From contig JAGYME010000006.1 in assembly GCA_018400715.1 (NCBI GenBank), forward strand, positions 611-64,610: DNA of 64,000 nt, in the 5' to 3' direction. The DNA is from Candidatus Bipolaricaulota bacterium (lineage in GTDB: Bacteria > Bipolaricaulota > Bipolaricaulia > M55B111). The position numbers and the translations under genes were made by a program. The notes under the pieces were generated by a model that saw nothing but the letters and a program-made list of their open reading frames with translations, ran no database searches and was not told the DNA's origin. Each line of letters starts with the position of its first letter. The first letter of the stretch is position 1. Below, one piece after another: positions 16,372 to 50,065 of this stretch.

Positions 16372-16372
16372 C

Positions 16373-29630: not shown

Positions 29631-30635
29631 TCAGGTCGTAATCCGGGATAGATCTCCCGATTCGGCCGCCCCGCGGACCTCCCTGGCAATACGCCTTCCC
29701 GTGCTCATGGGCTCGTCGTAATAATAGGGGGAATAGGGCGACCCCTCCGGATAGAGGTTGGTTCCCGCAACTATCCTTCCGGAGACCTCGAAGGTAACGA
29801 ACTCGAGCTGGTCTGTACATATCGTCTCCAGGCAGAACGGACCGAATACCCCTGGTTCGAACAGCTCTTTTGAAGCATCCACCAGGCTCTTTCCCATTTC
29901 GTATAGCTGCGGAAGTAGAGATTCCCTGGCAACCAATGGCTTATTGCCCACGACGACGAAGCTCTTTTCTCCTTTACCCGCGCGGTAGTATTCATCAACG
30001 TTGGATTCATCACGACGGTCTATACCCAGGATTTCCAGCTTCTCATCTACAGGAGAGTAGTAGTAATGGGGATAGTACCTTGTGCCCTCTATCCACTCCT
30101 GTATAGTGTAGTCGTCGCCCGTCCCGGCTATCTTGTCGTGAAAATCCTCTTCAGAATCGACGAGAAAGAAACCCTCCCCGCCTTTCGCTCCGCTGAATTT
30201 AACTATGGCCGTACCATCAATATCCGCCGGGGAGTTGTAGTTTTTCGGCACCCTTATCCCGGCAAGATCGAGCCATTCCCTCTCTCTTTCCCGGTCCGAT
30301 TCCCACTGCAGTGTATACTTATTGCCAAACACCGGGACGTCAAAGTCGGCGAGCAGCCGGTCAGCCCCCACGTATTCGACGAAGGAACCGTGGGGGATAA
30401 TTACGACGTTTTTCTCCTTCAGCTCGGACTGAAATTCCTCGGAGAGAATGTCGGTGTAATCGTCGACGATTAGAAGTTCGTCCGGCCTCGCTTTGGAGAA
30501 GGATTCGTAGAGTTCCACCCTCTCGGGGGCGCAGATTCCAACTGTGGAAAGACCTTCGGTCCGGGCCCCATGAAATATTTGTAGGGCCGAGTGCGAGCAT
30601 ATCGTTCCTATTGCAGGAAGTTCGTTTGGGCTCAT
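29631..30635 (-). CDS. purP: 5-formaminoimidazole-4-carboxamide ribonucleotide (FAICAR) synthetase PurP, paralog 2
   Basis: N-terminal GTICSHSALQIFHGARTEGL..GIC and an ATP-grasp C-half, collinear with archaeal PurP. Confidence 0.85.
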   Translation of the reverse strand: MSPNELPAIGTICSHSALQIFHGARTEGLSTVGICAPERVELYESFSKARPDELLIVDDYTDILSEEFQSELKEKNVVIIPHGSFVEYVGADRLLADFDVPVFGNKYTLQWESDREREREWLDLAGIRVPKNYNSPADIDGTAIVKFSGAKGGEGFFLVDSEEDFHDKIAGTGDDYTIQEWIEGTRYYPHYYYSPVDEKLEILGIDRRDESNVDEYYRAGKGEKSFVVVGNKPLVARESLLPQLYEMGKSLVDASKELFEPGVFGPFCLETICTDQLEFVTFEVSGRIVAGTNLYPEGSPYSPYYYDEPMSTGRRIAREVRGAAESGDLSRITT

Positions 30636-31744
30636 GTTACCAACTCCTTAAGATCGCCGTTTTCCGCCGCCCGGATTAACTCCCATGCGATTCTCTTTCC
30701 GGAGCCGACTTCTTCCCCGTATTTGTACTTCATGTAAGGAGAGGTTGAGCCGAGTGCGGGAGAGCCGGGGACGCGGAGCGACGCGTCGAAAACCTCAAAC
30801 TCCAGTTCTTTCGTTAACACGCCCTGGAGGGCGAACAGGCCGATCATTCCCGGTGGGTATTCGTCCTTACATGCTTCCACAAACTTTCTCCCGGCCGTAA
30901 ATATCTTCTCCAGCTGCGATTCCCTCATTGTGACACCGTAATGCCCTACCTCGATGTTCTGATGGTCGACGTTAGCCTGAAGCTGCTCGTCCGCCGGCAG
31001 CCGCAGGAGACCGTCCAGGTCTGATTGAATCCTGCGGTCGAAACCCATTAGGTCTATTTCGTCAGTCAATGGGGACCAGAAATAGTTCGCGTTAAAGAGT
31101 CCTCCCAGAGCGACCTCTTCAATCGTTGCCTGTTTAAGATCCTCTTCGGTAATTATTCCCTCCTCGATTCTCCTTTCGGCCCTCGACTTGTACTCTTCGT
31201 AGCTTGAGGCGTAGAAGAAGGCCCGTTCCACGGACCTCTCCTTCTCCTGCACCTTAACTATGGACAACGAGTCGATATCCCGGGGTGAATCGAGCTCTTT
31301 CGGCCTCTTGATGCCAGCTACGTCCAGTAGGTCGTACTGGTTGTTCTCTTCATATCTCTCTTCGGCACGGAGGATTTGACGGTTACCAATAATCGGCACG
31401 GAAAACTCTTCCTCGACACGGTCATAACCCACGTATGTGGCGAACGACCTGTTAGGAACGAAAAACGTCCGCAAATCGCGCATTTGTTCCTGCACCTCAG
31501 GGTCGACTATGTTCTTAAATCTGTCGACGAGAATTATTTTGTCGAACAGGTTATCGTAGTGGTCGGTATAGGTGGACTCCCGGCCTCGCTCACATACCAC
31601 AAGCGTCTTCAGGTCCTCTTCCTTCGCACCGTAACCTATCTCCAGAGCGGAATGAGACCCGAGAACTCCAACAGTCAACTGGCTTTTTTCTTCGACTTCG
31701 TAGTCTTCAACCAAGCCGCGGACCTGGTCTAAATCAATTGACAT
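30632..31744 (-). CDS. purP: FAICAR synthetase PurP, paralog 1
   Basis: GVLGSHSALEIGYGAKEEDLKTLVVC plus the ATP-grasp half. 4-nt overlap with the downstream paralog. Confidence 0.8.
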   Translation of the reverse strand: MSIDLDQVRGLVEDYEVEEKSQLTVGVLGSHSALEIGYGAKEEDLKTLVVCERGRESTYTDHYDNLFDKIILVDRFKNIVDPEVQEQMRDLRTFFVPNRSFATYVGYDRVEEEFSVPIIGNRQILRAEERYEENNQYDLLDVAGIKRPKELDSPRDIDSLSIVKVQEKERSVERAFFYASSYEEYKSRAERRIEEGIITEEDLKQATIEEVALGGLFNANYFWSPLTDEIDLMGFDRRIQSDLDGLLRLPADEQLQANVDHQNIEVGHYGVTMRESQLEKIFTAGRKFVEACKDEYPPGMIGLFALQGVLTKELEFEVFDASLRVPGSPALGSTSPYMKYKYGEEVGSGKRIAWELIRAAENGDLKELVT

Positions 31745-33265: not shown

Positions 33266-34969
33266 TTATACGGAAATCGCCAGGTCCCCTTCTTCTGCCT
33301 CGAAACTGCCGAGAAGTTGGGCCCGACACGCCTTATCGTATACATCTATGATGACGATTTTACCTTTTGGGTCTTCCGTTTTGGGTATGACTTCGATCAA
33401 TTCACCGGTATCCGGGTCTGAAACGGTCTTGGCAGCGTACAATGAGAAGACCTCATCCACCTTGACTCCTTCTTTCTTGCCGCAATTTCCTGCTATGCCA
33501 CCGAGAATAACGGTATTCTCACCAGCAAGGTTAATAACTTGGCACCTTAACCCTTTAGGCTTCCCTTTGCCGTTTTCACCGCCAGTACTGGGTGACTTTC
33601 CTCGCTGCTCAAGTAGAATCGAAGAAGAATCGTTTAAGACCCCTGTCAGTTCTGCGGCAACAGTGGCTAGGGTCTTTTCCACCGCTTCTCCCACTATACT
33701 GTCGGCAAATTCCTTCGTCCCAAACGTAACCTGGTTGACCCAGGCCGAAGGGCTGGTTCCGGAGCTCACAGAAAAGTTCTTGCTTGCCACGACGTTCCAC
33801 GATGAATCAAGCAGTTTTACGCTGTAACTTCCGGATGTTAATGAGGGCGAGGGGTTCCAGTTCCACGTTGCACAGTTGTTTGAAGGGGATGTCGACTGGA
33901 ACAACAAGGGCGGAGTTATGGAAAACCCCCCGGAATCGAAAAACTGGACAGTAAAGGTGGACGGCGGAGTGGGGTCCAAGTAACCTACGGTGACGATCTC
34001 TCCCGGAGCGTAGACGTTTTTATCCGCCCTGAACCCACCTGTGCATACGCTAGTGCTTACCTGAGATATAGAATTGATCATCGCTCCTACATTGAACGAC
34101 GCGCTCGTCTGTCCTTCCGCTTTTCCCGTAGCTGAACCCCCGGAGAGTATCTCCCCGGTGTAGGCACTTATCACCCGATAGGTCATATTCACTCCCACGG
34201 TGGCCCCAGTAACCGTCAAAAAACCCAGACTTATTCTGGACTTCCTTATGTCAATACCTGTAACGCTCCCAGCAATTATGGCATCCGCTCCTATCGGGGA
34301 TGAGGCCATTGCCAGATCTGAATTGTTCGATGGGTTGAGTCTTTGCTCGAACAGAACCCTTTCGATCTCTTGCCTTTCCAGAACGTGAAATCCACTATTC
34401 ACCAACTTCTCGATTATCATATCAGCCAAACCATGGCTGACGTTGGCAAAGCCCGTGTTGCTTCTGTCCTCAAAGCTCACGACGGCAACGGTTAGGTCCC
34501 TAGCCGAGGATCCGGCGGCCGGTTGAGCGTTCACAACAGTTTGCGTCAAACTATTATTATCTTCGTTCGTTTCAGCTACTTTGTCGAAGGGGTCATCCAC
34601 AACAGCCTTCAACTGGTTCTCACCTGGCTGGACAGACCAGGAAAAAGTTACCGTATCAGTTTCTCCAGCGTCCAGACCAAAAGCTATCGGCTTGTGGTCT
34701 ACCCGATCGCCATTTACGTAGAGTCGGACGTAGAAGCGATCGGTATCATCCGCACCTTGATTTAACACTTCCACACTAACTTCTACCCGATCACCTGGTG
34801 AAGGATTACGGGGAGAGATATTCAGATTCGACACCACGAGGTCAGCTCCATCTGCAGAAAGTCCAATATGACTACAAATTAGGGTTATGAGAAGTGCAAG
34901 TGAAAGCATAATCAATACCGGCAGTGGAGATATATTATCTGCATTTTTTCGCCGTAAGATCTTGCCCAT
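33266..34969 (-). CDS. secreted CARDB-domain plus CsgG-like-domain protein
   Basis: Signal/TM at the N-terminus. CARDB-like aa 42-141 (nt 34547-34846: DLVVSNLNISPRNPSPGDRVEVSVEVLNQG...NEDNN). CsgG/COG1462-like aa ~158-300 (nt 34070-34498: TVAVVSFEDRSNTGF..GLADMIIEKLVNSGFHVLERQEIERVLFEQRL..GADAIIAGSVTG). Ser/Thr-rich beta domains follow. Confidence 0.6.
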   Translation of the reverse strand: MGKILRRKNADNISPLPVLIMLSLALLITLICSHIGLSADGADLVVSNLNISPRNPSPGDRVEVSVEVLNQGADDTDRFYVRLYVNGDRVDHKPIAFGLDAGETDTVTFSWSVQPGENQLKAVVDDPFDKVAETNEDNNSLTQTVVNAQPAAGSSARDLTVAVVSFEDRSNTGFANVSHGLADMIIEKLVNSGFHVLERQEIERVLFEQRLNPSNNSDLAMASSPIGADAIIAGSVTGIDIRKSRISLGFLTVTGATVGVNMTYRVISAYTGEILSGGSATGKAEGQTSASFNVGAMINSISQVSTSVCTGGFRADKNVYAPGEIVTVGYLDPTPPSTFTVQFFDSGGFSITPPLLFQSTSPSNNCATWNWNPSPSLTSGSYSVKLLDSSWNVVASKNFSVSSGTSPSAWVNQVTFGTKEFADSIVGEAVEKTLATVAAELTGVLNDSSSILLEQRGKSPSTGGENGKGKPKGLRCQVINLAGENTVILGGIAGNCGKKEGVKVDEVFSLYAAKTVSDPDTGELIEVIPKTEDPKGKIVIIDVYDKACRAQLLGSFEAEEGDLAISV

Positions 34970-35079: not shown

Positions 35080-38000
35080 TCAGTAATTTATTTTCAGAAC
35101 CGCCCAATCGACGCTGGAATCGTCCTGGACAGCGATATCGAGTACTTGTTCTGTCTCCATCAGGGATAAGATCGACGGACTCAAGTTCAGGGTGATTACA
35201 TCCGTTTCGCCCAGACCGAGGTAGTCCGACAGTGGTTCGGTCTCCGCCCATCCACCGGCGGATATGACACCGAGCCGCAGCGTATCGTTGCCGCCACCGT
35301 TTTTGACGCGGATCTTCAACTGGGCGGACTCAATGTCACACCCTGGAGCGACGGAGACCGGCAAATGGAACGTGTGAGCCCAATATCGGTCTGGGGTCTC
35401 GTCGTCGCAACCCTTCAACTTGTTGCACCCATCAGGGTTTTCCGGGTAGAAGTAGGTGTTATCTGCAGCGTAGTGATCGTTTACCCAGTCTGTCAGGGCC
35501 TGTCTGGGGTTTGAACCCTCGACCCCGTCAAAGCAGTCTCCGCGTTGACAGACGTGGTACTCCATCGTCTCCGGGCAGGGGCATTCCGGGGGTTGCTGGA
35601 AGACCTTTAGGGCAATTACACATTGCGGACAGACCACGTCGCCACACAGGGCATTTAGATGTAAGTGGTAATGGTGTTCCCCGGGTGGAGGGGTAAAATC
35701 AGCCGGCAGGCTAAATCCGGAGTGGGGGCTAGGCAGCACGGAGCCCGGGTCAACCGGTGTCAGGTTCCAAGAATAGCTTGGTCCAATATCACCGCAACCA
35801 ATACAATCGATACTCGAGTCTACCGTGACCGTCCCCGATAATTCAGGTATTGCGACGCTGTCTTGCGTGCAGGTGCCCGTGCTGGAGTGAGAAGCCCCTG
35901 CGCTATCCTCCCAGGAAAACTCTACAACGTTCCAGTCCCCGCAGTCGCATTCGCCCTTAATTTGGAATTGGACTCTGAAGGGCTCACATTCGTGACCGTC
36001 ACATTCCGGAACGATCTCCAGCATATATGTCCCCGGTTCTTCCAGCAACGTCGCGTCAAACGAGAGTGGACTCATTTGCGAACTTCCCGTCGCGGTTGAA
36101 GCCAAGGTGTCACCATCAGGCCCGTAAAGGGTCCAGAAGTAATAGTCCATACACTCTGGCAACCAGGAAGGCTCGCATTTATAGTATGGAACTACATTCA
36201 CCGGAGGGGTTACCACGGGAGGACTGCCTGGAGTATAAGTGATGTTATTGATAATTACGTCGGGAACGTCGTTGTCGTCACCGTCCTTCCATTTTCCACA
36301 TTTACATTTGTAGTAAGGACCTTCACCAACATAAAATGCCAGGTCTAGTGACCGGTTGCAGTCGTCCGGGCGGAGAAGTTTGTCCTCGACCTCAAACTCA
36401 TCATTCGTAACCGCACCCCAGACGGCGTCACAGTACCGATGGTACTTGCTGGAGGCCCAGCCCCAGCGCAGCTCTGGCTCCTTTATCTCGGGTTTGATAA
36501 TTAACCAGTACTTTTTCCCTTCTTTCTGCTCGAACGGATCGGGGATCTTGTTAATTCTGTACCGATAAAACCTCTTGTGGTTGTAGGAGTCCGCGTCCCC
36601 GGGACATTCATATTCATGGTTGTACCAGTTGAGCCAGCAGCAATCCCCGGCAGCATGGACGTCAAAATCGGTAAATTTGTCTCTCCACAGTATCTCTCCG
36701 GGCTCACAGTCCCCATCGTGTTCGGCGATCATTATTTCAAAACTCTTTATCGTACCAGCGTCGCCCGGGTACTCTTCCTCGATATCGTCAAAGTCTTCCC
36801 ACGAACCCCAGAACTGGATAAACGAGACAGGTCCGGACTCATCACACTCCCAATCGTCGGCCAGCCAGACTTCCTCTCCATCTATTTCGCCGCACTCCAC
36901 GTCCCAGCCGTTCCAGTAGGGCCACATGGGCTGGGTCATCTTGTGTTCGTGGCCTCCATTATGTGGGTAACACTTCCCGCAATAACCGGCTGCGAAGATA
37001 TCCTCGAAGAACTCTGGGTCCATGGCAGCGGAGTATATTTCCGCCTCGTCGATTAGCCCGTCAAAACTATCAGCGGGTACTTCGTGGTCCCTGCCAAACC
37101 AGAGTGCACCTGAATTGTCAAGGTCTCCAACTCCATTAAGGGCAAGCATCTGCGTATCGCCATTAACCCGTAGATGCATCTTTCCCTCGTGTCTGTTTAC
37201 AATTACCCCAATGAAGTTCCACCTATCGGGATCGACCGTGAGGTCCGAAGTATACCAGCCGTTCAAATACACCTTGAAAAGTCCGCTATCTGGTTTAGCT
37301 CTAAGTGCGTAACCTTCTCCATCATCCCGTTTATCGACGAAGGTTCCGAAGTTCTCGGTCGGCTTGATCCAGGTGTCAATGGAAAAATCTTCTTTACCAA
37401 AGTTTAGCTCTGGATGGCTTGAAACCCAGGCGAAGTTTTCCTCGTAACCGGTCCCAGCCGATGGGTTCTCACCCACGTCTATGGCGCCGCTTTTGATCCC
37501 GTCCCCGAGTCTGGGCGCGCTCCCGTCCTTAGTCCACCAATCGTAGTGGCCGTCTTTTATTTCCTGATGACAGTGGTTAAACGGCCACCAGGCAACAAGG
37601 TCCGTCCACTCGGGACTTGGGTCGGGTGGGCTGATATCTATACATTTGCATCTGACTTTCAGGGTAAATACAAACCTATCGCACGCTTGACCGTCACAAT
37701 GGGGTACCAGCGTTACTTCATACTCCCCCGGACCATTTAGGTCCCCCGGATCCAGGGTAATTGTTCCCGTCACGTGATCATCGGAACTGCTAAAGCCCTG
37801 TTGTACCCCCATACCTTCTATTTTCCAGTTATAATAAACTGGATCCTGACAAGATCCCTCGCATACGTAACTGGGATCTATATCCACCGGTAGATCTTCC
37901 CCGTCAACCGCGATCGTACCTCCAGCGGTTACTGGATTATTGTCAATTAGGACTTCCTCCCATTCCTCACAACTACAGGGCCGAATTCCGACAACCGTAG

Positions 38001-41000
38001 CACAATTAGTAGCAGATACCTCTCCCACTTCGCTAATGGCCTGCAAGGTCGCGCAATTCCTGTTCTCTCCCTCGGAAATGACGTGAGCCTCAAATGTCAA
38101 GGTAGCGGTATCGCCAGGGGACAGAGGATCGGCAAAAAGGAAGGTAATTTCCGGTGGAGTACCTCCCACCTCAAAAGACAGGTCAGCGTCGGCGCTGTCA
38201 GGTAGGTATTCGAGACAGTCCGGCAGCTCGTCTTTGACGTTAATTCCCTTTAACACGCACGTTCCCGTATTGTGAACCTTGATCAAGAACTTTACTTCCG
38301 TACATACGCTCGCCTCAATCTGGTCAACAAATTCACCGGTCTCCGTATCCTGCACGAGCTTTTCCAGACTTACTCCGGGACTACATCCAGCCTCTATTGC
38401 CAATCGGAAGTCAAATTTCTCACACACTTGATCATCACAATTGGCCACCAGAGTTACCTCGTATTCACCCGGACCGTCAAAGTCATTCTGGTCCAGTTCA
38501 AAAGTCTGGCTGTAAAGGGGTCCGTCCGATGATGAAAATCCTCCCGTCCCGGAGACGTACCATTCGTAATTTACCCCTTGACTGCAGTCACCTTGACATC
38601 CAAATTCAGCCTCGATCTCCAGGGGCAAATCGTTCGTGGTTACGTTAACTACCTCCCCGATATTAACGGTGTTTTCCTCAACCTGGATATCCGGATTATC
38701 GTCGTCATCGCTGTCAGGCCAATCACCACACATGCAACCACTACAGCATAGATAGAGATTGGCGTAGTCGACACTGGTATCGTCCTGAATGTATACGTCC
38801 AGATAGCTATTGTCCGTCATATAACTCAATAGGCTGTTAGTGCCTGGAGAAAATGATGAAGATAAGTCCGTTCCTTGAGCTGGGAGCTGACCCAGGTCGA
38901 GGTGAATGACGTTAGTCGTTCCCGTGGATGTATAGTCGCTCCAGAGCTTGTACCCGACACCGCCAGGAGAGTTATCACTGAAAGTCCCAGTCCACAGGTG
39001 CAACCAATCGTTGTGCGTTTCGAAAGGAAGTGCCTTCACCTTGATCTCGAGCCAGGCCTGAGTTATTTCTTCACAGTTAGGCCACTTGAAGGTGTGGACA
39101 AATTTTCTGTTATTATAGGGGAAATCAAACCCCGCGTCTCCCTGGTCTCCGAAATTAATTTCTGAGAGAAGAGCGTCTCTGGGGTTAACCGAGGGAACGT
39201 CCTGGTCATCGTCGAAGTCGTCGTCCTCTCCCGCCAACTTTTCAATTGAGACTTCATCTGGTCCACAATTGGATATTTCCTCCGTTAGAGTCAGCTTAAA
39301 TTGATATTGACCACACTTATGGTCATCGCAATGGGGTAGAAGGGTTATCCCGTAACTACCGGGGCCAGTCAAATCACTGGAGGCCAAATTAAGGTTTTGG
39401 GCTGACTGGCCTGAAACCAGAAGGTCACCATCTACAAACAAATCGAAGTCGGGATCACAACCGCCTTCACACTGATAACTGGGGACTATCTCTATCGGAT
39501 AATCACCTGTAGAGACGGTAACCGTTCCTCCAGCGGATACCATACTGCCCTCGACTGTTACGTCGGGGACCCCGTCGTTATCCCCATCAATCCAGCGTCC
39601 GCAGCTGCACTGATCCTGCTGACAGCCCTCGGGTACCGCGATAGTCTCATCATTATTGCTCTCGTCAATCTCGTTTATGATATGTTGAGGGTCGACGATG
39701 ACATCGATGGGTGAACCCAATATATTGGGTTGCTGGAGCACCTTAGTAGTACAGGAACCTGCTGCTAGCCCAGAAATGGATTCCATCCAGCTGGTGCCCG
39801 ACCCAGACTGCCCAACTATCGGAGATGCCTTAAAGAAAAATTCACCGTCCACGTCCGCGGTGCCGACGTTACAGATCGTGACCTTGACGTTACACTTCTC
39901 ATCAAATTCGACGCTATCCACTACCACGTCTGGTTTTCCCTCTGTATACTCGACTAACAAGTGACAGGAGGGACATTCCTCTCTACCACAGGTTGCATGT
40001 AAGGTGGCCGTGACCTCGTCAAACGAACTGGACGAGAAACTGCACTCGTTTCCGTCCCCACTTCCCCATGTCCCTATTCCCGGAGTGGTGACCTCCCAGC
40101 TGTAGCTTAGCAGAGAAGCAGGACAGTTAATACAGTTGAGATCTGACGTTACCGAAATTTCATGGGCTGCCTGAGCGTGTGTTACCTGCAGCGTGTCTCC
40201 ACAATTTCCCGTCCACGTAGAAGGTTGGTCTCCCGGACTTGAATAATACTCTACCTCAACTCCTCCCCATTGACCACATCGACACCCCTGACCCCCTTCC
40301 TTTCCAACTACCGTCGCACAATCCGTCTCGTGGAGTACTTCTCCGCCGGATTCAGCCCGAACCTTCACGCAGTTTTCGTGTCTACCTTCTGACACCACGT
40401 GGGCGGAGAAAGTCAGTCTGATCAAACCGCCGGGCTGAAGAGTATCCGGAATATACCAGGTCGGATTTGCGGATGAGCCGCCCTGCTCGTAGTTACTACT
40501 CCCGGAGACGTATTCGAGCCCCGGAGGGAGCGAGTCGCTAACAAAGATCTCACTTATCGGGCTATTCCCGGTGTTCATAATGGCTACACGGAATTTAGCG
40601 TTCTGACAGACCTCCTTTTCGACTCGATCACCAACGGTATCCCCGCCTTCCTGGACTATCTTTTTGCTAACGACCATCCCCGGCTCCCCGCTCTGTTTTA
40701 CCCTTAGCTGAAATTGAAATCTCGAACAATCCTTCCCATTACAGTGAGCGACGACGGTGAGGGTATAGCTACCTGGCCCGGCGAGGCTGGAGGGAGATAA
40801 AGTAAACGGACTAGAGACGTGACTATCAGATGAACCAAATCCATCTGGGCCACCAACGAACCAGCTATAGTTTGGCGAACAGTCTCCCACACAGGTGTAG
40901 TCAGGGTCGACCGTTACGGGGAGTTCGTCCTCTGATAGAGTTAAGGACCCCCTATTATTCACGGAAGAGCCATTGACAGAGATATCTGGAGTCCCATTAC

Positions 41001-41883
41001 CGTCCCTGTCGCCCCACTTACCGCACTCGCACTTGGCCCCTTCTGTGACCGCAAAGCTACACCTGGCGGCTGCTATGGGTCGGTCGCCTTTTTTTGCAGC
41101 TTCTTCGCCCTGATAGACTGTTAGACGCAGAGTCCTCTGTCCATCTGGCTCCTCGATGGTACCACCCACGCTTATAGATCTAGAGGATAATTCTCCAAGG
41201 TGCTCTGTTATATAACGACAGCCGGCTTTCACGGACTTTTCTCTGGCGAAACCGAAGTGTATATGGACCGGGTCGCCGACACGATAAGTAGCATTCGAAC
41301 CCCCCTCCAGACATCCCTTATCAGGACACAAGAATAAGGCGGGATTACTTCCGGTCGTTCCACTGATACCCAATCTTTCACGAGGGAACGTCCGCCGCAA
41401 CAAGATCTTGGTCGTACCGTCGGGCATCTCTTCAGTCATCTCGACGTAAGCGGATCTAGGACTCTCCTGGCGATAATTTACTAATACTTTTAAACAAAGT
41501 TCTCTTTCCCATAGGGTGCTTCCCATCCTCAACGGGGAAAAACGTCGATCAAATCGCCGTTTGTCGGCCATGCCCTCAATTATAAGTGCCTCGGGCTTCC
41601 CGGGAACTTCCAAGTCAAAAGTTTTTGATTCACCTGGTTTTAGTTCAACTTTCCCCAGACGTTTTACCTCTTCAAAACCATCCCCTCCCAAGACGAGGGT
41701 AGATAGGTTCAACGTACGCCGGTCACAGATGTTCGTTATCTCGACGGCCGCCTGGCTATCACCACCGGTTTGGGCTTCTACGACCCCGGAAACCAACGAA
41801 AGCAACATCACTGTAATAATTAAACTGAGGATAACCCAACCACGAGAAGAGCTTTGGAAACCATAAAACTTAACAGAATACAT
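35080..41883 (-). CDS. giant secreted multidomain protein (2267 aa): seven Cys-rich modules, two DUF11-like domains, CARDB-like, LamG-like, two copies of a C-terminal-type module
   Basis: Signal peptide (..LLSLVSGVVEAQ). DUF11-like domains at about nt 40300-40680 and 37990-38385 (LPPGLEYVSGS / LPDCLEYLPDS). CARDB-like at about 39625-39935. LamG-like at about 37020-37560 (DFSIDTWIKP..LRVNG..DEAEIYS). Trp/acidic-rich module at about 36320-37010 (WLADDWECDESGPVSFIQFWGSW). Confidence 0.85.
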   Translation of the reverse strand: MYSVKFYGFQSSSRGWVILSLIITVMLLSLVSGVVEAQTGGDSQAAVEITNICDRRTLNLSTLVLGGDGFEEVKRLGKVELKPGESKTFDLEVPGKPEALIIEGMADKRRFDRRFSPLRMGSTLWERELCLKVLVNYRQESPRSAYVEMTEEMPDGTTKILLRRTFPRERLGISGTTGSNPALFLCPDKGCLEGGSNATYRVGDPVHIHFGFAREKSVKAGCRYITEHLGELSSRSISVGGTIEEPDGQRTLRLTVYQGEEAAKKGDRPIAAARCSFAVTEGAKCECGKWGDRDGNGTPDISVNGSSVNNRGSLTLSEDELPVTVDPDYTCVGDCSPNYSWFVGGPDGFGSSDSHVSSPFTLSPSSLAGPGSYTLTVVAHCNGKDCSRFQFQLRVKQSGEPGMVVSKKIVQEGGDTVGDRVEKEVCQNAKFRVAIMNTGNSPISEIFVSDSLPPGLEYVSGSSNYEQGGSSANPTWYIPDTLQPGGLIRLTFSAHVVSEGRHENCVKVRAESGGEVLHETDCATVVGKEGGQGCRCGQWGGVEVEYYSSPGDQPSTWTGNCGDTLQVTHAQAAHEISVTSDLNCINCPASLLSYSWEVTTPGIGTWGSGDGNECSFSSSSFDEVTATLHATCGREECPSCHLLVEYTEGKPDVVVDSVEFDEKCNVKVTICNVGTADVDGEFFFKASPIVGQSGSGTSWMESISGLAAGSCTTKVLQQPNILGSPIDVIVDPQHIINEIDESNNDETIAVPEGCQQDQCSCGRWIDGDNDGVPDVTVEGSMVSAGGTVTVSTGDYPIEIVPSYQCEGGCDPDFDLFVDGDLLVSGQSAQNLNLASSDLTGPGSYGITLLPHCDDHKCGQYQFKLTLTEEISNCGPDEVSIEKLAGEDDDFDDDQDVPSVNPRDALLSEINFGDQGDAGFDFPYNNRKFVHTFKWPNCEEITQAWLEIKVKALPFETHNDWLHLWTGTFSDNSPGGVGYKLWSDYTSTGTTNVIHLDLGQLPAQGTDLSSSFSPGTNSLLSYMTDNSYLDVYIQDDTSVDYANLYLCCSGCMCGDWPDSDDDDNPDIQVEENTVNIGEVVNVTTNDLPLEIEAEFGCQGDCSQGVNYEWYVSGTGGFSSSDGPLYSQTFELDQNDFDGPGEYEVTLVANCDDQVCEKFDFRLAIEAGCSPGVSLEKLVQDTETGEFVDQIEASVCTEVKFLIKVHNTGTCVLKGINVKDELPDCLEYLPDSADADLSFEVGGTPPEITFLFADPLSPGDTATLTFEAHVISEGENRNCATLQAISEVGEVSATNCATVVGIRPCSCEEWEEVLIDNNPVTAGGTIAVDGEDLPVDIDPSYVCEGSCQDPVYYNWKIEGMGVQQGFSSSDDHVTGTITLDPGDLNGPGEYEVTLVPHCDGQACDRFVFTLKVRCKCIDISPPDPSPEWTDLVAWWPFNHCHQEIKDGHYDWWTKDGSAPRLGDGIKSGAIDVGENPSAGTGYEENFAWVSSHPELNFGKEDFSIDTWIKPTENFGTFVDKRDDGEGYALRAKPDSGLFKVYLNGWYTSDLTVDPDRWNFIGVIVNRHEGKMHLRVNGDTQMLALNGVGDLDNSGALWFGRDHEVPADSFDGLIDEAEIYSAAMDPEFFEDIFAAGYCGKCYPHNGGHEHKMTQPMWPYWNGWDVECGEIDGEEVWLADDWECDESGPVSFIQFWGSWEDFDDIEEEYPGDAGTIKSFEIMIAEHDGDCEPGEILWRDKFTDFDVHAAGDCCWLNWYNHEYECPGDADSYNHKRFYRYRINKIPDPFEQKEGKKYWLIIKPEIKEPELRWGWASSKYHRYCDAVWGAVTNDEFEVEDKLLRPDDCNRSLDLAFYVGEGPYYKCKCGKWKDGDDNDVPDVIINNITYTPGSPPVVTPPVNVVPYYKCEPSWLPECMDYYFWTLYGPDGDTLASTATGSSQMSPLSFDATLLEEPGTYMLEIVPECDGHECEPFRVQFQIKGECDCGDWNVVEFSWEDSAGASHSSTGTCTQDSVAIPELSGTVTVDSSIDCIGCGDIGPSYSWNLTPVDPGSVLPSPHSGFSLPADFTPPPGEHHYHLHLNALCGDVVCPQCVIALKVFQQPPECPCPETMEYHVCQRGDCFDGVEGSNPRQALTDWVNDHYAADNTYFYPENPDGCNKLKGCDDETPDRYWAHTFHLPVSVAPGCDIESAQLKIRVKNGGGNDTLRLGVISAGGWAETEPLSDYLGLGETDVITLNLSPSILSLMETEQVLDIAVQDDSSVDWAVLKINY
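35083..35512 (-). repeat. 'NPRxAL...HTF...QDDxSVD(Y/W)A' module, C-terminal copy
   Basis: SNPRQALTDWVNDHY..WAHTFHLPVSVAPGCDIESAQLKIRVKN..LDIAVQDDSSVDWAVLKINY. Confidence 0.55.
35599..35949 (-). repeat. Cys-rich module copy 7 (divergent)
   Basis: CDCGDWNVVEFSW...IDCIGC...SYSWNL...HLHLNALCGDVVCPQCVIALKVF. Confidence 0.6.
35956..36306 (-). repeat. Cys-rich module copy 6
   Basis: CKCGKWKDGDDNDVPD...YKCEPSWLPEC...EPGTYMLEIVPECDGHECEPFRVQFQIK. Confidence 0.7.
37651..37977 (-). repeat. Cys-rich module copy 5
   Basis: CSCEEWEEVLIDNNP...YVCEGSC...GPGEYEVTLVPHCDGQACDRFVFTLKVR. Confidence 0.7.
38392..38736 (-). repeat. Cys-rich module copy 4
   Basis: CMCGDWPDSDDDDNPD...FGCQGDC...GPGEYEVTLVANCDDQVCEKFDFRLAIE. 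Confidence 0.7.
38749..39190 (-). repeat. 'NPRxAL...HTF...QDDxSVD(Y/W)A' module, internal copy
   Basis: VNPRDALLSEINFG..FVHTFKWPNCEEITQAWLEIKVKAL..LDVYIQDDTSVDYANLYL. Confidence 0.55.
39286..39609 (-). repeat. Cys-rich module copy 3
   Basis: CSCGRWIDGDNDGVPD...YQCEGGC...GPGSYGITLLPHCDDHKCGQYQFKLTL. Confidence 0.7.
39946..40284 (-). repeat. Cys-rich module copy 2 (divergent, lacks the acidic motif)
   Basis: CRCGQWGGVEVEY...LNCINC...SYSWEV...ATLHATCGREECPSCHLLVEY. Confidence 0.6.
40693..41031 (-). repeat. Cys-rich module copy 1 (protein-level repeat)
   Basis: CECGKWGDRDGNGTPD...YTCVGDC...GPGSYTLTVVAHCNGKDCSRFQFQLRVKQ. Confidence 0.7.
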
Positions 41884-42421: not shown

Positions 42422-43753
42422 CTAACAACCTTCGACCACGAAATTGGGGAGGGTGAAACACTCGACCAGAGAGGCAATTACGTTCTCCCGCCCCACCCTT
42501 GTGTACAGGCCGTTTATCTCCTGTTTATACAAAAAGAGCCCTATCAGATAGCCGAACTTCTCGAATCTAAGCTCTCCGTCCTTGATGTAGATGAACTCCT
42601 TCTCCGGGACGTCACAGAACTCCTGAGCGATGTAGTTTTCTCCCTGGACTTCTTCGACCTTCTTTTTCCACTCGTCCGGACGGTAGTCCCTCCCCACGTA
42701 GACGCCGTGACCGGCAAACTTGTCGAAGGGTTTGAGCAGAAACATATCCTGCTCCTCTATCAGCTTATTCCGTAACGCCTCGTTCCCCCGGTGAAATATC
42801 CGGCTTAGCGGGAAGTAATTGTTGACGAAGTCGGTTTCGTCCTCAGTTAGGTGATCCGTGTAGTCCGGTTCCTGGAGGATGGCAAATAGGGACTTGTTGT
42901 GAACTATCTGAGAGGAAAACCCACCGGCTACACAAACGTTACCGTCCCTGTAGGCGTTAAGGAACGGCTCGACCTCCTCGTAGCGTTCGACGATCTTCTG
43001 GGTCGTCGCCCGACGATAGACCAGGTCGATGCGACCCTCATCCGACAGTAAGTTCTTCCCGTCGTAGTCTAGCTCCCTGGGGTCACGGATTAGCGTCCGA
43101 TACCCGCGATCCACAAACCTCTTCTTGTACTCCCTGAACTCGCTATTTATCCCTTCCCCCTGGAAATCAACGATAGCCACCGTCTCCGGGTCATCTTCCC
43201 CCCCGATGAATTCGTGATAAATTTCGACGGTCGTGTCGATCCAGTTTTCCATGGGCGTGTAGTAGTGAATATCGCAGTCCTCAGGGATAAACTCCAGCAC
43301 CTTTGACCTATAGAGGGCGTTTTGCAGCACGCGGGCCTCGTTCATTCCCGCGGACCCGTCCGTGTTGAACTCACAGAACTTCAACCCACCGTCGTAGTCG
43401 TAGAAAATGTCAAAGCGGGCCATGGGAAAAAAGTTATCGTACCCGGGGTCGGCGAGGATTAGATCCTCGGTCCTCTCCGAAAAGGGGAATGCCCGGCGGA
43501 AGCTCTCGTCCGCTCGAAACCTTTCTATGGTCTTGTTCAAAATAGCAGTCAACTGTGCGAGGACCTCTTCTATCCAGTCCAGATCTTCCGGGGTAAAGAA
43601 GACGGGCTGGTAAAGGAAATCTACAGGCTGGCCCAGGTACCTGGCGGATGAGTTCTCGACCACGTCCTTTACCTCCCGATAATCACGGATGAACTCATCG
43701 GGACGAGAACGGATAAAGTCGCGATACTTCCTTAGCAGTTCTTCGGCGTCCAT
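42422..43753 (-). CDS. ATP-grasp-type ligase, glutathionylspermidine-synthase-like
   Basis: 443 aa. ARFDIFYDYDGGLKFCEFNTDGSAGMNE resembles the pre-ATP-grasp/ATP-grasp junction of GSP-synthase-like and circularly permuted ATP-grasp families. Motif-level call only. Confidence 0.4.
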   Translation of the reverse strand: MDAEELLRKYRDFIRSRPDEFIRDYREVKDVVENSSARYLGQPVDFLYQPVFFTPEDLDWIEEVLAQLTAILNKTIERFRADESFRRAFPFSERTEDLILADPGYDNFFPMARFDIFYDYDGGLKFCEFNTDGSAGMNEARVLQNALYRSKVLEFIPEDCDIHYYTPMENWIDTTVEIYHEFIGGEDDPETVAIVDFQGEGINSEFREYKKRFVDRGYRTLIRDPRELDYDGKNLLSDEGRIDLVYRRATTQKIVERYEEVEPFLNAYRDGNVCVAGGFSSQIVHNKSLFAILQEPDYTDHLTEDETDFVNNYFPLSRIFHRGNEALRNKLIEEQDMFLLKPFDKFAGHGVYVGRDYRPDEWKKKVEEVQGENYIAQEFCDVPEKEFIYIKDGELRFEKFGYLIGLFLYKQEINGLYTRVGRENVIASLVECFTLPNFVVEGC

Positions 43754-45703: not shown

Positions 45704-48568
45704 TTAATCTTCGTGATCGTTCGTATGAGTTTCTCCCGGGGGTACAATATGAAATTCGATTGAGCCTCCTCTTCTTGAAACGCTTAAGTTCACGTACAAA
45801 TTGGCAACAACGCACTCACGTCTGTCAAATATTTTGTAATGGACCTGGTAGGTCCCAGGGGTGTTCGGAAACGACCCCACCAGCCTGGCCGAATTCTTAT
45901 TTAAGTCCATTGAGAAACTGACACCCTGAGGCAGCTCAGAACTGACCAGATTGGCCTCTATGGCCCCATGTGAAGTAAGTTCCCTTCTGATTTCCGTCGG
46001 TATGGACATGGTCTTGTATACGCTCGAACCACCCTGTATTCCTGAAATATTCCACCTCAGAACCTGTGGGTAGGGACAAGTGGACTCGGAGGCCTGGCAG
46101 CGGGGCAGGTTGACCGTGCTGGACGAGCTGGCCCGTTTTCCGTCGTAGTCAGTTACCTGTGCGGTCAAGGTGACCTCTCCTCCCCCCGGTATATCTAGGC
46201 TTACAGAACGCGAGCCGCTGGAAGGCAAGTTTTGTAGCAGGCGAGAAAAGCCACTCGGCCCCTTTAGCGTTAGAGTCACAGTTCGCGGCAGCTGTCCTCC
46301 GTAAGAGTTCCAGGTCAGCGTGAGGTAATGGCTCGTTTCCTCTTTACATACCTGTGATACTTCCGCTTTCGTTTCGACGCTGATCCTCTCCACCGTTTCC
46401 TGCTTCCGGGTTGCCTGACCAGTCACCCTTACTTCCATGCAGGGGTGATCCAGGTCTATCGTCGTCTGATGTGATCCAGTTTCGGAAGGTGTGTATAGCA
46501 CGGATATAGTTTCGGAGTCACCGGAGTAAAGTTCGTAGGAAGACGGATAGGCGAAAAAGTGGGGTGAGGTCTCCGAAATCGATCCGGTGAGGACACCCGC
46601 CCCGGTATTTTCGACCGTGAACGATCGACTCAGACTCTCGCCAACTTGAGTTGAGCCAAAGTTAAGCGAAGTCGGTTCAACTAGGCATCCGGGTTGTGGG
46701 TGTGGTTCGATATCCACACATAACTGCTCGAGACAGTCAGGATCGATGAACTCATCCGTCGAGGTTTCAATCTTGGCAATCGTGTCGACCGAGGCGGTCG
46801 CACTGGTTGCTGCCCTCGTTACGGCGCTTGTAGAAGCGAGTGCGTGTGACCTGGCATCAGCAGCTGCTTCGGCGGCTGCGGAGGCCCTGGTTAGCGCGTC
46901 CGCACTGGCGGTTGCGTAGGCGTTCGCTTCAGTTGTCGCCCTAGCCATTGCGGTTGCCCAGGCAGCCACGTCAGCCTCCACGTCAGCTATAACGAGTGCT
47001 TTCGCAAACGCAGTTGCATATGCCTGTGCCTGTGCATCGGCGGCCGTTCTTGCTGAAGCAACTGCCTCCGCCAGGGCCGCGGCAGTTGCTTCAGCCGCAG
47101 CGTGTGTATTGGTGTAGACGCTTGCTTCAGCGCTAGCAGCAGAGTACGCCGAGGCAACAGCCTGAGCGGTAGCCGTTACAGCCGTATTGATCTCAACGTT
47201 AACCTCCGCATGTGCTTCAGCAAGAGCAGATGCCGCTGCATATGCGTTTGCCTGGGCATCGGCTTCGGCTTTCGCCGTAGCCGCGAAAGCGCTAACTACG
47301 CCTTCGAGGTCACCGTTTTTACCTGCCCGTTCAGCTCTTTGAGCTGCAGCCTGAGCGTCGGCCGCCGCGTTGGCCGCTGCCTGGGCATAGGAATTCGACT
47401 CCGCCACTGCTTCAGCCATTGCACTAGCAGCTGCTTCAGCATGGGCCATCGCATTCGCTGAGGCCTGTGAGGACGCGCTTGCCCGGGATTCTGCCCGGGA
47501 GACAGCCTCTGCTAACGCCGTTGCCAGGGCCGAGGCTTCAGATCTCGCCGTCGCCAAGGCACTGCTGGATGCACTAGCTGCTGCTTCGGCCCGTGAATAT
47601 GCGGTGGAGACCGCCTCGGCCATCGCCTCAGCCTCCGCCTCCGCTTCTGCTCTCGCCTGGGCGATACCTTCAGCTGACGCCTCCGCCTGGGCACTTGCAT
47701 CGGCGGCCGCTTCCGCCTCGGCGCGGGCCCTGGCCATAGCATTCGCGGCTGCCTCGGCACGGGCTTCCGCCGAAGACTCAGCTTGAGCAACGGCTTCTGC
47801 GATTGCTTCTGCCGACGCGCTTGCGCTTGCCGCGGCCTCGACGATGGCATTTATCGTCCCTGTGATCTCCGTCGTTACCGAACCACAAGGAACTTCTGTT
47901 TCTACAGTTTCATGATATTCTTCTGCTTTGGACCGAGCGCGCGCTATTGCTGTTGACGCAGCCTGAGCGTCCGATCTCGCCCGTGTATACGCTCTGGAAA
48001 TGGCCGAGGCCGACGCCTCCGCTGAGGCTTGAGCCAGAGAAATATCCTCGACGCTTACCTCCGCCCTGGCCCTGGCGGCAGAGGCAGCTTCCGCGCTAGC
48101 TGAAGTAGATGCATTTTCTTGTGCTGTTTGTCTGGCTTCAGCGCGGGCTATCGCGGAGGCTTCGCTGCGCGCCTCTGATATCGCCTGAACGACTGCAGAG
48201 GCATGAGCGCTTGCATCCGCCGCCACCTCGACAAGGGCCTGCATCTCTGCAAGTGAATTAGACTCAGCCAGAGCAGCAGCGGACGCAGCAGAACTTGCTT
48301 CTGCGGACGCGTTTTGAGCAATTGACTCTATCGCTTTTACCTGCCGCCCTACTGCTGATCTCGCGGAATCAGCCGCCTTCGCTGTCGCCTGGGCCTCGGA
48401 GTATGCCTGTGAGGCCGCTTGAGCTGAACTCTTAGCCTCCTGGACTAACTGATCGATAACATCGGATTGGTCTGCTGCCAAGCCGGTAATTATCGAAGTA
48501 CCAGGTAGACCAAAAATTAGTGAAAGTAACAAAACAACTAATACTGAGATACGAAATTTTCTTACCAT
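45704..48568 (-). CDS. secreted protein with about 550-aa (Ala-X)n region and C-terminal Ig-like/ASH-type beta domains
   Basis: Signal peptide MVRKFRISVLVVLLLSLIFG. Long Ala/Glu/Ser/Arg/Gln region. C-terminal PTSLNFGSTQVGESLSRSFTVENTGAGVLTGSI..ISVLYTPSETG is typical of ASH/choice-of-anchor-D-type domains. Confidence 0.8.
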   Translation of the reverse strand: MVRKFRISVLVVLLLSLIFGLPGTSIITGLAADQSDVIDQLVQEAKSSAQAASQAYSEAQATAKAADSARSAVGRQVKAIESIAQNASAEASSAASAAALAESNSLAEMQALVEVAADASAHASAVVQAISEARSEASAIARAEARQTAQENASTSASAEAASAARARAEVSVEDISLAQASAEASASAISRAYTRARSDAQAASTAIARARSKAEEYHETVETEVPCGSVTTEITGTINAIVEAAASASASAEAIAEAVAQAESSAEARAEAAANAMARARAEAEAAADASAQAEASAEGIAQARAEAEAEAEAMAEAVSTAYSRAEAAASASSSALATARSEASALATALAEAVSRAESRASASSQASANAMAHAEAAASAMAEAVAESNSYAQAAANAAADAQAAAQRAERAGKNGDLEGVVSAFAATAKAEADAQANAYAAASALAEAHAEVNVEINTAVTATAQAVASAYSAASAEASVYTNTHAAAEATAAALAEAVASARTAADAQAQAYATAFAKALVIADVEADVAAWATAMARATTEANAYATASADALTRASAAAEAAADARSHALASTSAVTRAATSATASVDTIAKIETSTDEFIDPDCLEQLCVDIEPHPQPGCLVEPTSLNFGSTQVGESLSRSFTVENTGAGVLTGSISETSPHFFAYPSSYELYSGDSETISVLYTPSETGSHQTTIDLDHPCMEVRVTGQATRKQETVERISVETKAEVSQVCKEETSHYLTLTWNSYGGQLPRTVTLTLKGPSGFSRLLQNLPSSGSRSVSLDIPGGGEVTLTAQVTDYDGKRASSSSTVNLPRCQASESTCPYPQVLRWNISGIQGGSSVYKTMSIPTEIRRELTSHGAIEANLVSSELPQGVSFSMDLNKNSARLVGSFPNTPGTYQVHYKIFDRRECVVANLYVNLSVSRRGGSIEFHIVPPGETHTNDHED
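46790..48450 (-). repeat. low-complexity (Ala-X)n coding repeat (approximate bounds)
   Basis: In one 83-residue stretch counted by hand (ASAEAIAEAVAQAE...AEAAASA), 38 of 42 odd positions are Ala, in a single register. The DNA shows GCN every 6 nt. Two short non-repeat interruptions (..EEYHETVETEVPCGS.., ..RAGKNGDLEG..). Confidence 0.8.
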
Positions 48569-48952: not shown

Positions 48953-50065
48953 TTAATCCTGGCGAGCTAGATTCCCAACTACGGCTAACGACACCAGATA
49001 GCAAGAAAACAGGGCCCAGAACAACATTGGTCTACTCGGGCGACGGTCGTAGATCTTTCCTTGGCCGGGCTCTGGCAACGGCACCGGATCCCAGGACAAG
49101 TTGTACTTAACTGCCAGCTTCTCAAGGTTTAAGATATGAATTATTGGGATATTCTGTGCTGCCAGGGCGTAAATCACACCGCGCTCTCCAGGTCGAGGAA
49201 GACGATTGATTCTATTTATGCCTGGTTTCAGTTGTAAAACCTCGGCGGAGGTGCCCATGTTCGCAACGGCACCACCGATGTTGATAAACACATCAACGCC
49301 ATCCGCCGCTCGTCGTTGGTAAATGTCAATCCGCTTCTCCACATTCTTCTGGAGAATAGGAATATCGAGAAACTCCGCTCTAGAGTTTTCGATCTTTTCT
49401 TCCAGACTGACCCGGACGTCCTCAGTCAGGCTTCTTCCAATATCGTCCCGCCCCCCGAGCGAGGCTGCCGCAACCCCGAAAGGAATTACCCCTTCTTGAT
49501 AGAGTATCTTGTGGATATCCAGGATCGTCAGATCAACTACGTTTGCGCCCCATATGGAGGCCCCCAATGAATAAATTACAATCGGGTTCGCACCGATCTC
49601 GGCAGCCGCACAGAGAGTTGCAACTGTGGCTCCGGGGAAGGAGCCCGAAGCTCCAATTGCCACGTCGTCACCATCTTCAATACCAGATTCGTGCAACAAC
49701 AGGACCATCAGTGCGGCAAAGTTTGGGCTAGTGGTGGTCCTCTTCGCCTCCAGGTCACCCAGGGTCGTCGTCAACTCCGTAAGTTCTCCCCCAATCAATC
49801 CAGTTCGGTTGGGATCTGAAGAAAGGTTAATAGGTATCCCCATTTCTCGTCTGGTCGCGCTGATTACCTGGTTAGCATAACTCATCCGCTCTGCGGCAGA
49901 CACCATACTGTTATACGGTAACTGCTCATTGTTACGGATGGGTAAGCAATTCAACAAAACGATCGCACAGATACTTACGGCGGCCAGGAGGAAAATATAT
50001 TTTCTCGAAACCTTCGCCCCCCGATAAACTGGAACCCCAGGAGCTTTTCGAGAAAAGCCAATCAC
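48953..50065 (-). CDS. membrane-anchored protein, possibly 'poly-gamma-glutamate system protein' family
   Basis: N-terminal TM helix, then ..DPNRTGLIGGELTELTTTLGDLEAKRTT..GASGSFPGA... From memory this resembles the family that co-occurs with PgsB/PgsC (TIGR04332). Unverified. Confidence 0.35.
   Translation of the reverse strand: MIGFSRKAPGVPVYRGAKVSRKYIFLLAAVSICAIVLLNCLPIRNNEQLPYNSMVSAAERMSYANQVISATRREMGIPINLSSDPNRTGLIGGELTELTTTLGDLEAKRTTTSPNFAALMVLLLHESGIEDGDDVAIGASGSFPGATVATLCAAAEIGANPIVIYSLGASIWGANVVDLTILDIHKILYQEGVIPFGVAAASLGGRDDIGRSLTEDVRVSLEEKIENSRAEFLDIPILQKNVEKRIDIYQRRAADGVDVFINIGGAVANMGTSAEVLQLKPGINRINRLPRPGERGVIYALAAQNIPIIHILNLEKLAVKYNLSWDPVPLPEPGQGKIYDRRPSRPMLFWALFSCYLVSLAVVGNLARQD

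Follow-up and report, generated by a model that had tools for sequence, protein, structure and literature searches.

Seven cysteine-rich Ig-like modules, likely PKD-like stalk elements, in a giant predicted secreted protein of a Candidatus Bipolaricaulota bacterium

Introduction

Fibrillar adhesins of bacteria and archaea contain an isopeptide-bonded stalk domain, once called DUF11 and since renamed CLIPPER (PMC12617251), and in the PKD-like domains of the collagenases ColG and ColH, Ca2+ bound at the N-terminal linker brings that linker into line with the domain axis and makes the domains more stable, both thermally and chemically (PMC4356367). Here we analyze a module that occurs seven times in a giant protein encoded at positions 35080-41883 (minus strand) of a 64,000-nucleotide stretch of Candidatus Bipolaricaulota contig JAGYME010000006.1 (assembly GCA_018400715.1), which we call the window. 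An initial annotation had described these copies as an unrecognized six-cysteine module that opens with a motif resembling thrombospondin type 3 (TSP3) repeats. We consider it likely that they are disulfide-stapled, partly Ca2+-stiffened, PKD-like stalk modules of a secreted, adhesin-like protein.

In the arrangement that we propose, each module would form an extracellular Ig-like beta-sandwich of ~110 residues, distantly related to PKD domains. Copies 2 and 7 would keep the canonical form, and copies 1 and 3-6 would be derived from it, the staple between C27 and C108 (numbered by family-profile columns) having been lost and Phe having replaced C108; in four of these five six-cysteine copies, a loop of the EF-hand/dockerin type would bind Ca2+ at the N-terminal pole and stiffen the junction there. 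The modules would serve as covalently stabilized spacers, each ahead of a different domain (CLIPPER, CARDB, a domain that we call X, and LamG with DUF7901), and the whole would be a Sec-secreted, very acidic 248-kDa protein resembling a fibrillar adhesin.

Results

Seven old copies in two forms

A search of the protein for C-x-C-x-x-W yielded seven starts (aa 285, 534, 759, 1050, 1303, 1860 and 1979), and in a MAFFT alignment of the corresponding segments of ~111-119 aa (alignment A1), C2, C4, W7, C48, C98 and C103 are invariant, so the proposed cysteine pattern survives proper multiple alignment. Identity to copy 1 is 24-41% in this alignment, and copy-to-copy protein identity ranges from 14 to 43%. 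That there are seven collinear modules was borne out by an independent hidden Markov model (HMM), built from 355 module instances in other proteins with the window protein left out: in a six-frame translation of the whole window it found exactly seven copies and nothing else, at domain E-values of 1.8e-31 to 3.1e-20 and covering profile positions 1-2 to 111-115 of 116. Codon-aligned DNA identity among the copies is 33-52%, the longest exact word common to them is 11 nt, and Tandem Repeats Finder reported no array, which together exclude a recent duplication or an assembly artefact; judged by this divergence, the array is old, as had been claimed.

The description of the module as uniformly six-cysteine holds for copies 1 and 3-6, but not for copies 2 and 7, which keep the eight-cysteine form of the family (9 and 8 cysteines in all, respectively), nor for the family consensus, which has eight. 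Copies 1 and 3-6 belong to a minority six-cysteine subtype without C27 and C108, with Phe at the C108 position. The middle cysteine pair is spaced Cx3C, as first described, in copies 1, 3, 4 and 5, whereas copies 2 and 7 have Cx2C and copy 6 has Cx7C; similarly, the cysteine and tryptophan part of the proposed skeleton is invariant, but its GPGxY and FxFxL motifs are confined to the six-cysteine copies. Copies 2 and 7 had been said to replace the acidic motif with a different insert, whereas they in fact carry the common loop form of the family, with C27.

An Ig-like sandwich with distant similarity to PKD domains

Taken singly, none of the seven modules is matched by a Pfam-A family, even at E<=10, and a confident mapping to an existing Pfam family was therefore not found. 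The module is indeed unrecognized in that neither Pfam-A nor NCBIfam has a model for it, but its fold is a familiar one. Given the seven paralogues as its sole alignment, AlphaFold2 produced an all-beta model of eleven strands (pLDDT, the predicted local distance difference test, 94.1; pTM, the predicted template modeling score, 0.85). When this model was compared with the PDB by Foldseek, there was no strong single match, and the matches were consistently Ig-like sandwiches (template modeling score, TM, 0.5-0.64; probability ~1.0), including Y_Y_Y domains (3v9f, 3va6, 4a2l), the PKD domains of AAVR (6jcs_R, 7wqp_R, 6ihb_R), the PKD domain of ColG (2y72) and Fn3 domains. Structure prediction of a single module, which had been suggested as a check, thus gives a confident Ig-like all-beta sandwich and not a new fold.

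The module profile also reaches PKD domains by sequence: its top PDB match is the PKD array of KIAA0319L/AAVR, at E 0.01 with 7 sequences in the profile and 2.3e-4 with 44. Aligned by hhalign to one AAVR PKD fragment, the 44-sequence profile gave E 1.1e-4 and a probability of 57% over 68 columns, in a register that sets the YxW and GxY of the module opposite the PKD hallmarks. Across the 355 family instances, conservation is seen at YxW (Y 67%, W 74%) and at GxY (G 84%, Y 85%) with T/V/L after it, and the DFGDG part is absent. The homologues P0002, P0004, P0008, P0010 and P0030 exceed Pfam whole-protein cut-offs for Y_Y_Y, K319L-like_PKD, PKD_3 and PKD; these passes are sums of sub-threshold partial matches, and no single stretch (0) passes. 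On the profile comparisons and the model, the module is best filed as a divergent, cysteine-rich branch of the PKD/E-set Ig-like class and not as a new fold.

A large family without a model of its own

When 1.84 billion cluster representatives (clusters at 50% identity) were searched exhaustively with HMMER, at least 719 proteins were recovered at E<=1e-3, 224 of them at <=1e-10 and 33 at <=1e-30, and the best 150 proteins supplied the 355 full-length instances, which are spread over 112 proteins, with at most ~16 in any one. By these profile matches, the module family is large, and neither Pfam-A nor NCBIfam has a model dedicated to it; it is common in public data and not peculiar to this gene. 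(Word-indexed homology searches with module alignments A1 and A2 gave no match, which reflects a limit of sensitivity and not absence, given the 719 proteins from the exhaustive search.) Its signature reads CxCGxW ... CG ... YxCxPxC ... YxW ... GxYxxT ... CGGxxCxxC, with the following column frequencies in the 355 instances.

N-terminal part: C2 98%, C4 95%, G5 72%, W7 95%
C27: 65% (84% with positional tolerance)
Middle part: Y/F46 85%, C48 95%, Y58 67%, W60 74%
C52: 73% (97% with tolerance)
C-terminal part: G90 84%, Y92 85%, C100 97%, C105 99%, C108 88%

Because the modal cysteine count per family module is eight, the canonical module is an eight-cysteine domain. Relatives of both the six-cysteine and the eight-cysteine window copies occur within one protein in P0011 and P0018, and other family members (P0002, P0004) carry 10-20 near-identical tandem copies.

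To place the family in genomes, we scanned GTDB representative genomes with a degenerate DNA pattern and verified the loci with the HMM. The pattern is skewed to TGT codons and the counts are lower bounds, so the loci constitute a sample and not a census. At least 119 loci were found, of which at least 43 were HMM-verified, and among the verified loci listed, 41 of 43 come from Bacteroidota (Chitinophagales, Saprospiraceae, Flavobacteriales, Pedobacter, Prolixibacteraceae and others) or Ignavibacteriota. The 76 further loci listed failed HMM verification, and among the handful of these taken to relaxed thresholds, the two labeled 'Methanoperedenaceae' were empty there as well. A sorting tail of the type IX secretion system (T9SS) is present in P0010 and in at least 13 more of the 150 representatives, and these proteins are therefore exported across the outer membrane. 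The closest relative of module 1 among the loci listed (138 bits to the A1 profile) is L070, from a metagenome-assembled genome labeled 'uncultured Thermotogae bacterium' (CAZTJJ010000074.1); its gene runs past the end of the locus, and the taxonomic label of the bin is perhaps unreliable.

Domain architecture and the stalk role

The open reading frame is intact, with an ATG start and 2267 aa as first described, and encodes a protein of 248 kDa with an isoelectric point (pI) of 4.26 and 90 cysteines (4%). Secretion, which had also been proposed, is supported by a Kyte-Doolittle scan: the single hydrophobic segment of the whole protein is N-terminal (aa ~12-39) and signal-like, and cleavage would be expected at its end, after VEA and before Q. 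The features are as follows, the modules having been delimited by the CxCxxW search, the alignment and the family HMM.

35080-41883, minus strand: whole gene for the predicted secreted multidomain protein (open reading frame, 2267 aa, pI 4.26)
41773-41883, minus: signal-peptide-like N-terminus, aa 1-37 (Kyte-Doolittle scan and sequence)
41035-41772, minus: N-terminal domain, aa 38-283 (conserved in P0027)
40693-41034, minus: module 1 (M1), aa 284-397, six-cysteine subtype, DRDGNGTPD loop
40348-40620, minus: DUF11/CLIPPER domain 1, aa 422-512 (Pfam; PMC12617251)
39940-40287, minus: module 2, aa 533-648, canonical form with C27 and C108, 9 cysteines
39646-39918, minus: CARDB domain, aa 656-746 (Pfam)
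39280-39612, minus: module 3, aa 758-868, six-cysteine subtype, DGDNDGVPD loop
38743-39228, minus: domain X copy 1, aa 886-1047, possibly a jelly-roll binding module (repeat comparison, model)
38389-38739, minus: module 4, aa 1049-1165, six-cysteine subtype, DSDDDDNPD loop
37999-38328, minus: DUF11/CLIPPER domain 2, aa 1186-1295 (Pfam)
37648-37980, minus: module 5, aa 1302-1412, six-cysteine subtype, acidic loop deleted
37015-37422, minus: Laminin_G_3 (LamG/concanavalin-like lectin), aa 1488-1623 (Pfam)
36331-36933, minus: DUF7901 (PF25470), aa 1651-1851, Trp/acidic-rich region (Pfam, E 2.8e-26)
35953-36309, minus: module 6, aa 1859-1977, six-cysteine subtype, DGDDNDVPD loop, middle pair Cx7C
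35596-35952, minus: module 7, aa 1978-2096, canonical eight-cysteine form
35083-35553, minus: domain X copy 2, aa 2111-2267, C-terminal end of the protein (repeat comparison, model)

The order is thus signal, N-terminal domain, M1, CLIPPER, M2, CARDB, M3, domain X, M4, CLIPPER, M5, LamG, DUF7901, M6, M7 and domain X, so that different domains follow the modules. Pfam confirmed the interleaved DUF11, CARDB and LamG domains of the initial annotation and identified its Trp/acidic-rich region as DUF7901 (PF25470, E 2.8e-26); an NCBIfam scan of the whole protein returned the DUF11 repeat only. As far as Pfam matches tell, the partner domains are of kinds typical of surface proteins. The layout resembles that of a fibrillar adhesin, with a long secreted chain, repeated stalk-type domains (the seven modules, two CLIPPER domains and CARDB), and LamG and domain X as candidate binding domains.

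Domain X is present in two copies (32% identity, E 8e-11), both ending QDD(S/T)SVD(Y/W)AxL, and recurs twice in P0069 and also in P0003 and P0045; neither Pfam nor the PDB sequences contain a match to it. Its AlphaFold2 model (pLDDT 80) shows a weak Foldseek likeness to collagen-binding/PPC and CBM6/35/36 jelly rolls (TM 0.25-0.4), on which ground it is possibly a jelly-roll binding module. The N-terminal domain (aa 38-283) has no match in Pfam and no relative among PDB sequences, and forms with M1 and CLIPPER a cassette that recurs in P0027 (E 2e-89). DUF7901 has no relative among PDB sequences and is not mentioned in the literature searched. A homology search with the whole protein gave only matches driven by DUF11 and LamG, no relative turned up when GTDB representative genomes were scanned with the whole protein, and all of the window proteins looked up are singletons at 90% identity. 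The same domain vocabulary nevertheless occurs in P0003, P0011, P0018, P0027 and P0069, and P0003 (2505 aa) has LamG, DUF7901, domain X and modules in common with the giant protein. The CxC pair also appears after modules 5 and 7 (CKC, aa 1412/1414, window ~37642-37650; CPC, aa 2101/2103, ~35575-35583), where it stands at the start of non-module domains (LamG, domain X); the element may have a function in linkers or junctions in its own right.

In chitinases and collagenases, PKD domains contact the substrates. Those of AAVR bind virus capsids (PDB entries), and the modules might likewise bind carbohydrate, protein or a mineral surface themselves instead of acting as passive spacers; copies that are only 14-43% identical could differ in specificity. 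We regard such a role as rather unlikely. The conserved positions are those of the core and the presumed staples (Cys, W, Y, G) and form no surface patch, LamG, the jelly-roll-like domain X and CARDB, with which the modules alternate one-to-one, are more plausible binding domains, and arrays of 10-20 near-identical tandem copies, common in the family as in P0002 and P0004, are typical of stalks.

Pairing of the cysteines

Among the 355 instances, C27 and C108 are present or absent together (phi 0.81; 298 with both, 40 with neither, 17 discordant), as are C48 and C100 (phi 0.78) and, to a lesser degree, C52 and C105 (phi 0.44). C48 and C100 are lost together in ten modules, all of them in P0004 and therefore presumably reflecting one event kept through ten copies, and C52 and C105 are jointly missing from two modules unrelated to each other (P0079_543 and P0022_1935). 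The two N-terminal cysteines always stay together and occur as CxC, as CxC shifted by one residue, or as vicinal CC; the cysteine count is odd in 28% of family modules. This pairwise pattern is consistent with the disulfides suggested at the outset. A local C48-C52 bond was considered and rejected, as the co-losses favor C48-C100 and C52-C105. From co-variation, the most likely arrangement consists of four disulfides, C27-C108, C48-C100, C52-C105 and C2-C4 (profile columns), three of which would be kept in the six-cysteine copies; the C2-C4 pairing is deduced by elimination only and is the weakest link.

The window also encodes, at 15568-18805 (plus strand), a glycyl-radical enzyme that scores 1184.7 bits, against an NCBIfam equivalog cut-off of 1100, as a trans-4-hydroxy-L-proline dehydratase (HypD-type), and a radical-SAM activase that adjoins it. 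Because of this pair, the host is probably an anaerobe, perhaps a strict one in a reducing habitat, a setting in which the cysteines could instead be metal ligands (for Zn, Fe or another thiophilic metal), reactive thiols, or, in the CxC, intermolecular cross-links. The CxC, Cx3C and Cx4CxxC spacings are like those of metal sites, the N-terminal CxC or CC has no evident remote partner, and more than a quarter of family modules have the odd count noted above. The periplasm of Bacteroidota and Ignavibacteriota, however, forms disulfides, and it is to these phyla that most of the verified genome loci belong, with T9SS tails on at least 14 family proteins. Moreover, the loss of cysteines in pairs while the others stay fits disulfides and not a tetrahedral four-cysteine site, and the family columns contain no conserved His or auxiliary ligand and no CxxCH motif. 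We hold it unlikely, therefore, that the cysteines have such roles.

A narrower version, in which the CxC/CC and perhaps other cysteines are redox-active, metal-binding or intermolecular cross-linking sites and not simple intradomain staples, seems to us quite unlikely as well. If true, it would imply an extracellular matrix, either covalently linked or loaded with metal, in an anaerobic host and in T9SS-secreting Bacteroidota, and would set the modules in a class apart from passive PKD-like spacers. We thus retain structural disulfides as the preferred role of the cysteines.

The acidic loop

The four acidic motifs reported by the initial annotation are present at aa 292 (DRDGNGTPD), 766 (DGDNDGVPD), 1057 (DSDDDDNPD) and 1867 (DGDDNDVPD). 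They follow D-x-[DN]-x-[DN]-[GD]-x-P-D and occur in four of the five six-cysteine copies, copy 5 lacking the loop through a deletion of ~10 residues. In the AlphaFold2 model, the loop comes after the first strand (residues 3-7) and before the second (17-20), near the N-terminal pole. Modules 1 and 3 show the strict EF-hand/dockerin-type DxDx[DN]GxxD, and in modules 4 and 6 position 6 is occupied by Asp. A D-x-[DN]-x-[DN]-G-x-x-[DE] loop was found in 11 of the 355 family instances, all of them close relatives of the six-cysteine window copies (P0003, P0011, P0015, P0024, P0027, P0029, P0061, P0062, P0091, P0147). By analogy with the collagenase PKD-like domains, the loop probably binds Ca2+ and stiffens the junction to the preceding domain.

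The resemblance to TSP3 repeats stands insofar as each motif is a generic nine-residue loop of the DxDxDG type. The modules have no match to TSP_3 (PF02412) at E<=10, so the likeness consists of a generic loop in common and not of homology. DxDxDG loops are also found in EF-hands, dockerins and many unrelated folds. True TSP3 homology is extremely unlikely: although the string D-x-D-x-D-G-x-x-D belongs to the TSP3 consensus, TSP3 repeats are tandem and contain cysteine, whereas each module has a single nine-residue loop between two beta-sandwich strands, without a TSP_3 match and in only 11 of 355 family instances.

Genomic neighborhood

A search for partner genes had been suggested together with the HMM survey; the survey defined a distribution (719 clusters), but no conserved partners emerged. 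Conserved operon partners were rejected after the neighborhoods of seven relatives proved to have nothing in common with the window, and no operon-level system is therefore seen. On the same strand, 110 nt downstream of the giant gene, lies a gene for a 567-aa fusion of CARDB with a partial CsgG, the curli secretion channel (33266-34969, minus), which is not found beside the relatives examined. Two tandem PurP paralogues (DUF1246/DUF1297; 29631-31744, minus), an archaeal purine-pathway marker, score well below NCBIfam equivalog cut-offs. The surroundings of the giant protein hint at a locus for a capsule or exopolymer, with genes for a poly-gamma-glutamate system protein (48953-50065), a gamma-glutamyltransferase (55459-57201) and PgsB (57459-58676), two AstE/AspA-like genes (50133-51266, 52872-53960) and one of the ATP-grasp type (42422-43753). 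A 954-aa protein (45704-48568, minus) has an Ig-like domain of the HYDIN/ASH type and none of the seven-copy modules; its gene overlaps the GC-richest stretch of the window (46001-48000, 0.588).

Discussion

Several of our results weigh against disulfide-stapled, PKD-like stalk modules. The similarity to PKD is marginal, with an hhalign probability of 57% and no Pfam PKD match for any window module, and Foldseek scores Fn3 and other Ig-like folds like PKD, without separation. As for the staples, the co-loss of C48 and C100 comes from a single lineage (P0004), the CxC disulfide would be unusual and is derived solely by elimination, and extracellular disulfide formation is less certain in a probable anaerobe. 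The canonical Gly at position 6 is present in only two of the four acidic loops. A cell-surface anchor (sortase, archaeosortase or T9SS signal, C-terminal transmembrane segment, S-layer homology) was not found by hydrophobicity scan, Pfam or NCBIfam, and conserved neighbor genes are lacking, the neighborhoods of P0002, P0003, P0027, P0024, P0011, P0018 and P0029 sharing nothing with that of the giant gene.

Stalk modules stapled by disulfides nonetheless remain our preferred interpretation. They reveal no new fold, system or mechanism, and their function is drawn from analogy; the practical value lies in a new family definition and in a case of stabilization swapping. A dedicated HMM would bring annotation to long tracts of giant surface proteins in Bacteroidota and Ignavibacteriota that are now without a per-domain Pfam or NCBIfam match, as the module often occurs in 5-20 copies per protein and in at least 719 clusters at 50% identity. 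Within a single protein, the C27-C108 disulfide appears to have been traded for Phe and a Ca2+-type loop, beside CLIPPER domains of the isopeptide type.

Compared with known systems, the module is closest to PKD domains (PKD, PKD_3, PKD_4 and K319L-like_PKD; AAVR structures 6jcs and 6nz0), which are its best sequence-profile matches in the PDB. Both are Ig-like beta-sandwiches of similar core size, with a YxW middle strand and a GxYxxTLxV penultimate strand in register, and both form tandem extracellular repeats. The module, however, exceeds them by ~25 residues and has an additional strand, CxCGxW, at its N-terminus; it has 6-8 conserved cysteines that classical PKD domains lack, it is without the WDFGDG motif, and no Pfam PKD model reaches its per-domain threshold on it. 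The Y_Y_Y domains (PF07495) of Bacteroides hybrid two-component sensors give the best Foldseek matches (E ~1e-3, TM 0.52-0.56) and a summed Pfam score of 109 bits in homologue P0002, but they are single periplasmic domains that follow the beta-propellers of a sensor, in contrast to a cysteine-rich tandem module, and are 11-15% identical to it.

The remaining comparisons concern stabilization. With TSP3 repeats, EF-hands and dockerins, four modules have in common the nine-residue D-x-[DN]-x-[DN]-[GD]-x-x-D loop; past the loop there is no homology, the module loop being single and not tandem and giving no Pfam match. The clostridial collagenase PKD-like domains offer a functional analogy for that loop, as PKD-like sandwiches with a Ca2+ site near the N-terminal linker, but their ligands are different (linker Asn/Asp residues and a DxDG immediately ahead of the YxWDFGDG strand, as opposed to an EF-hand-type DxDxDG right after strand A), and they have no disulfides. 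CLIPPER, of which the giant protein has two, is like the module a covalently reinforced Ig-like stalk domain of long surface proteins (PMC12617251), but it combines a CnaA-like fold with a Lys-Asn isopeptide bond, whereas the module would be stabilized by disulfides and Ca2+.

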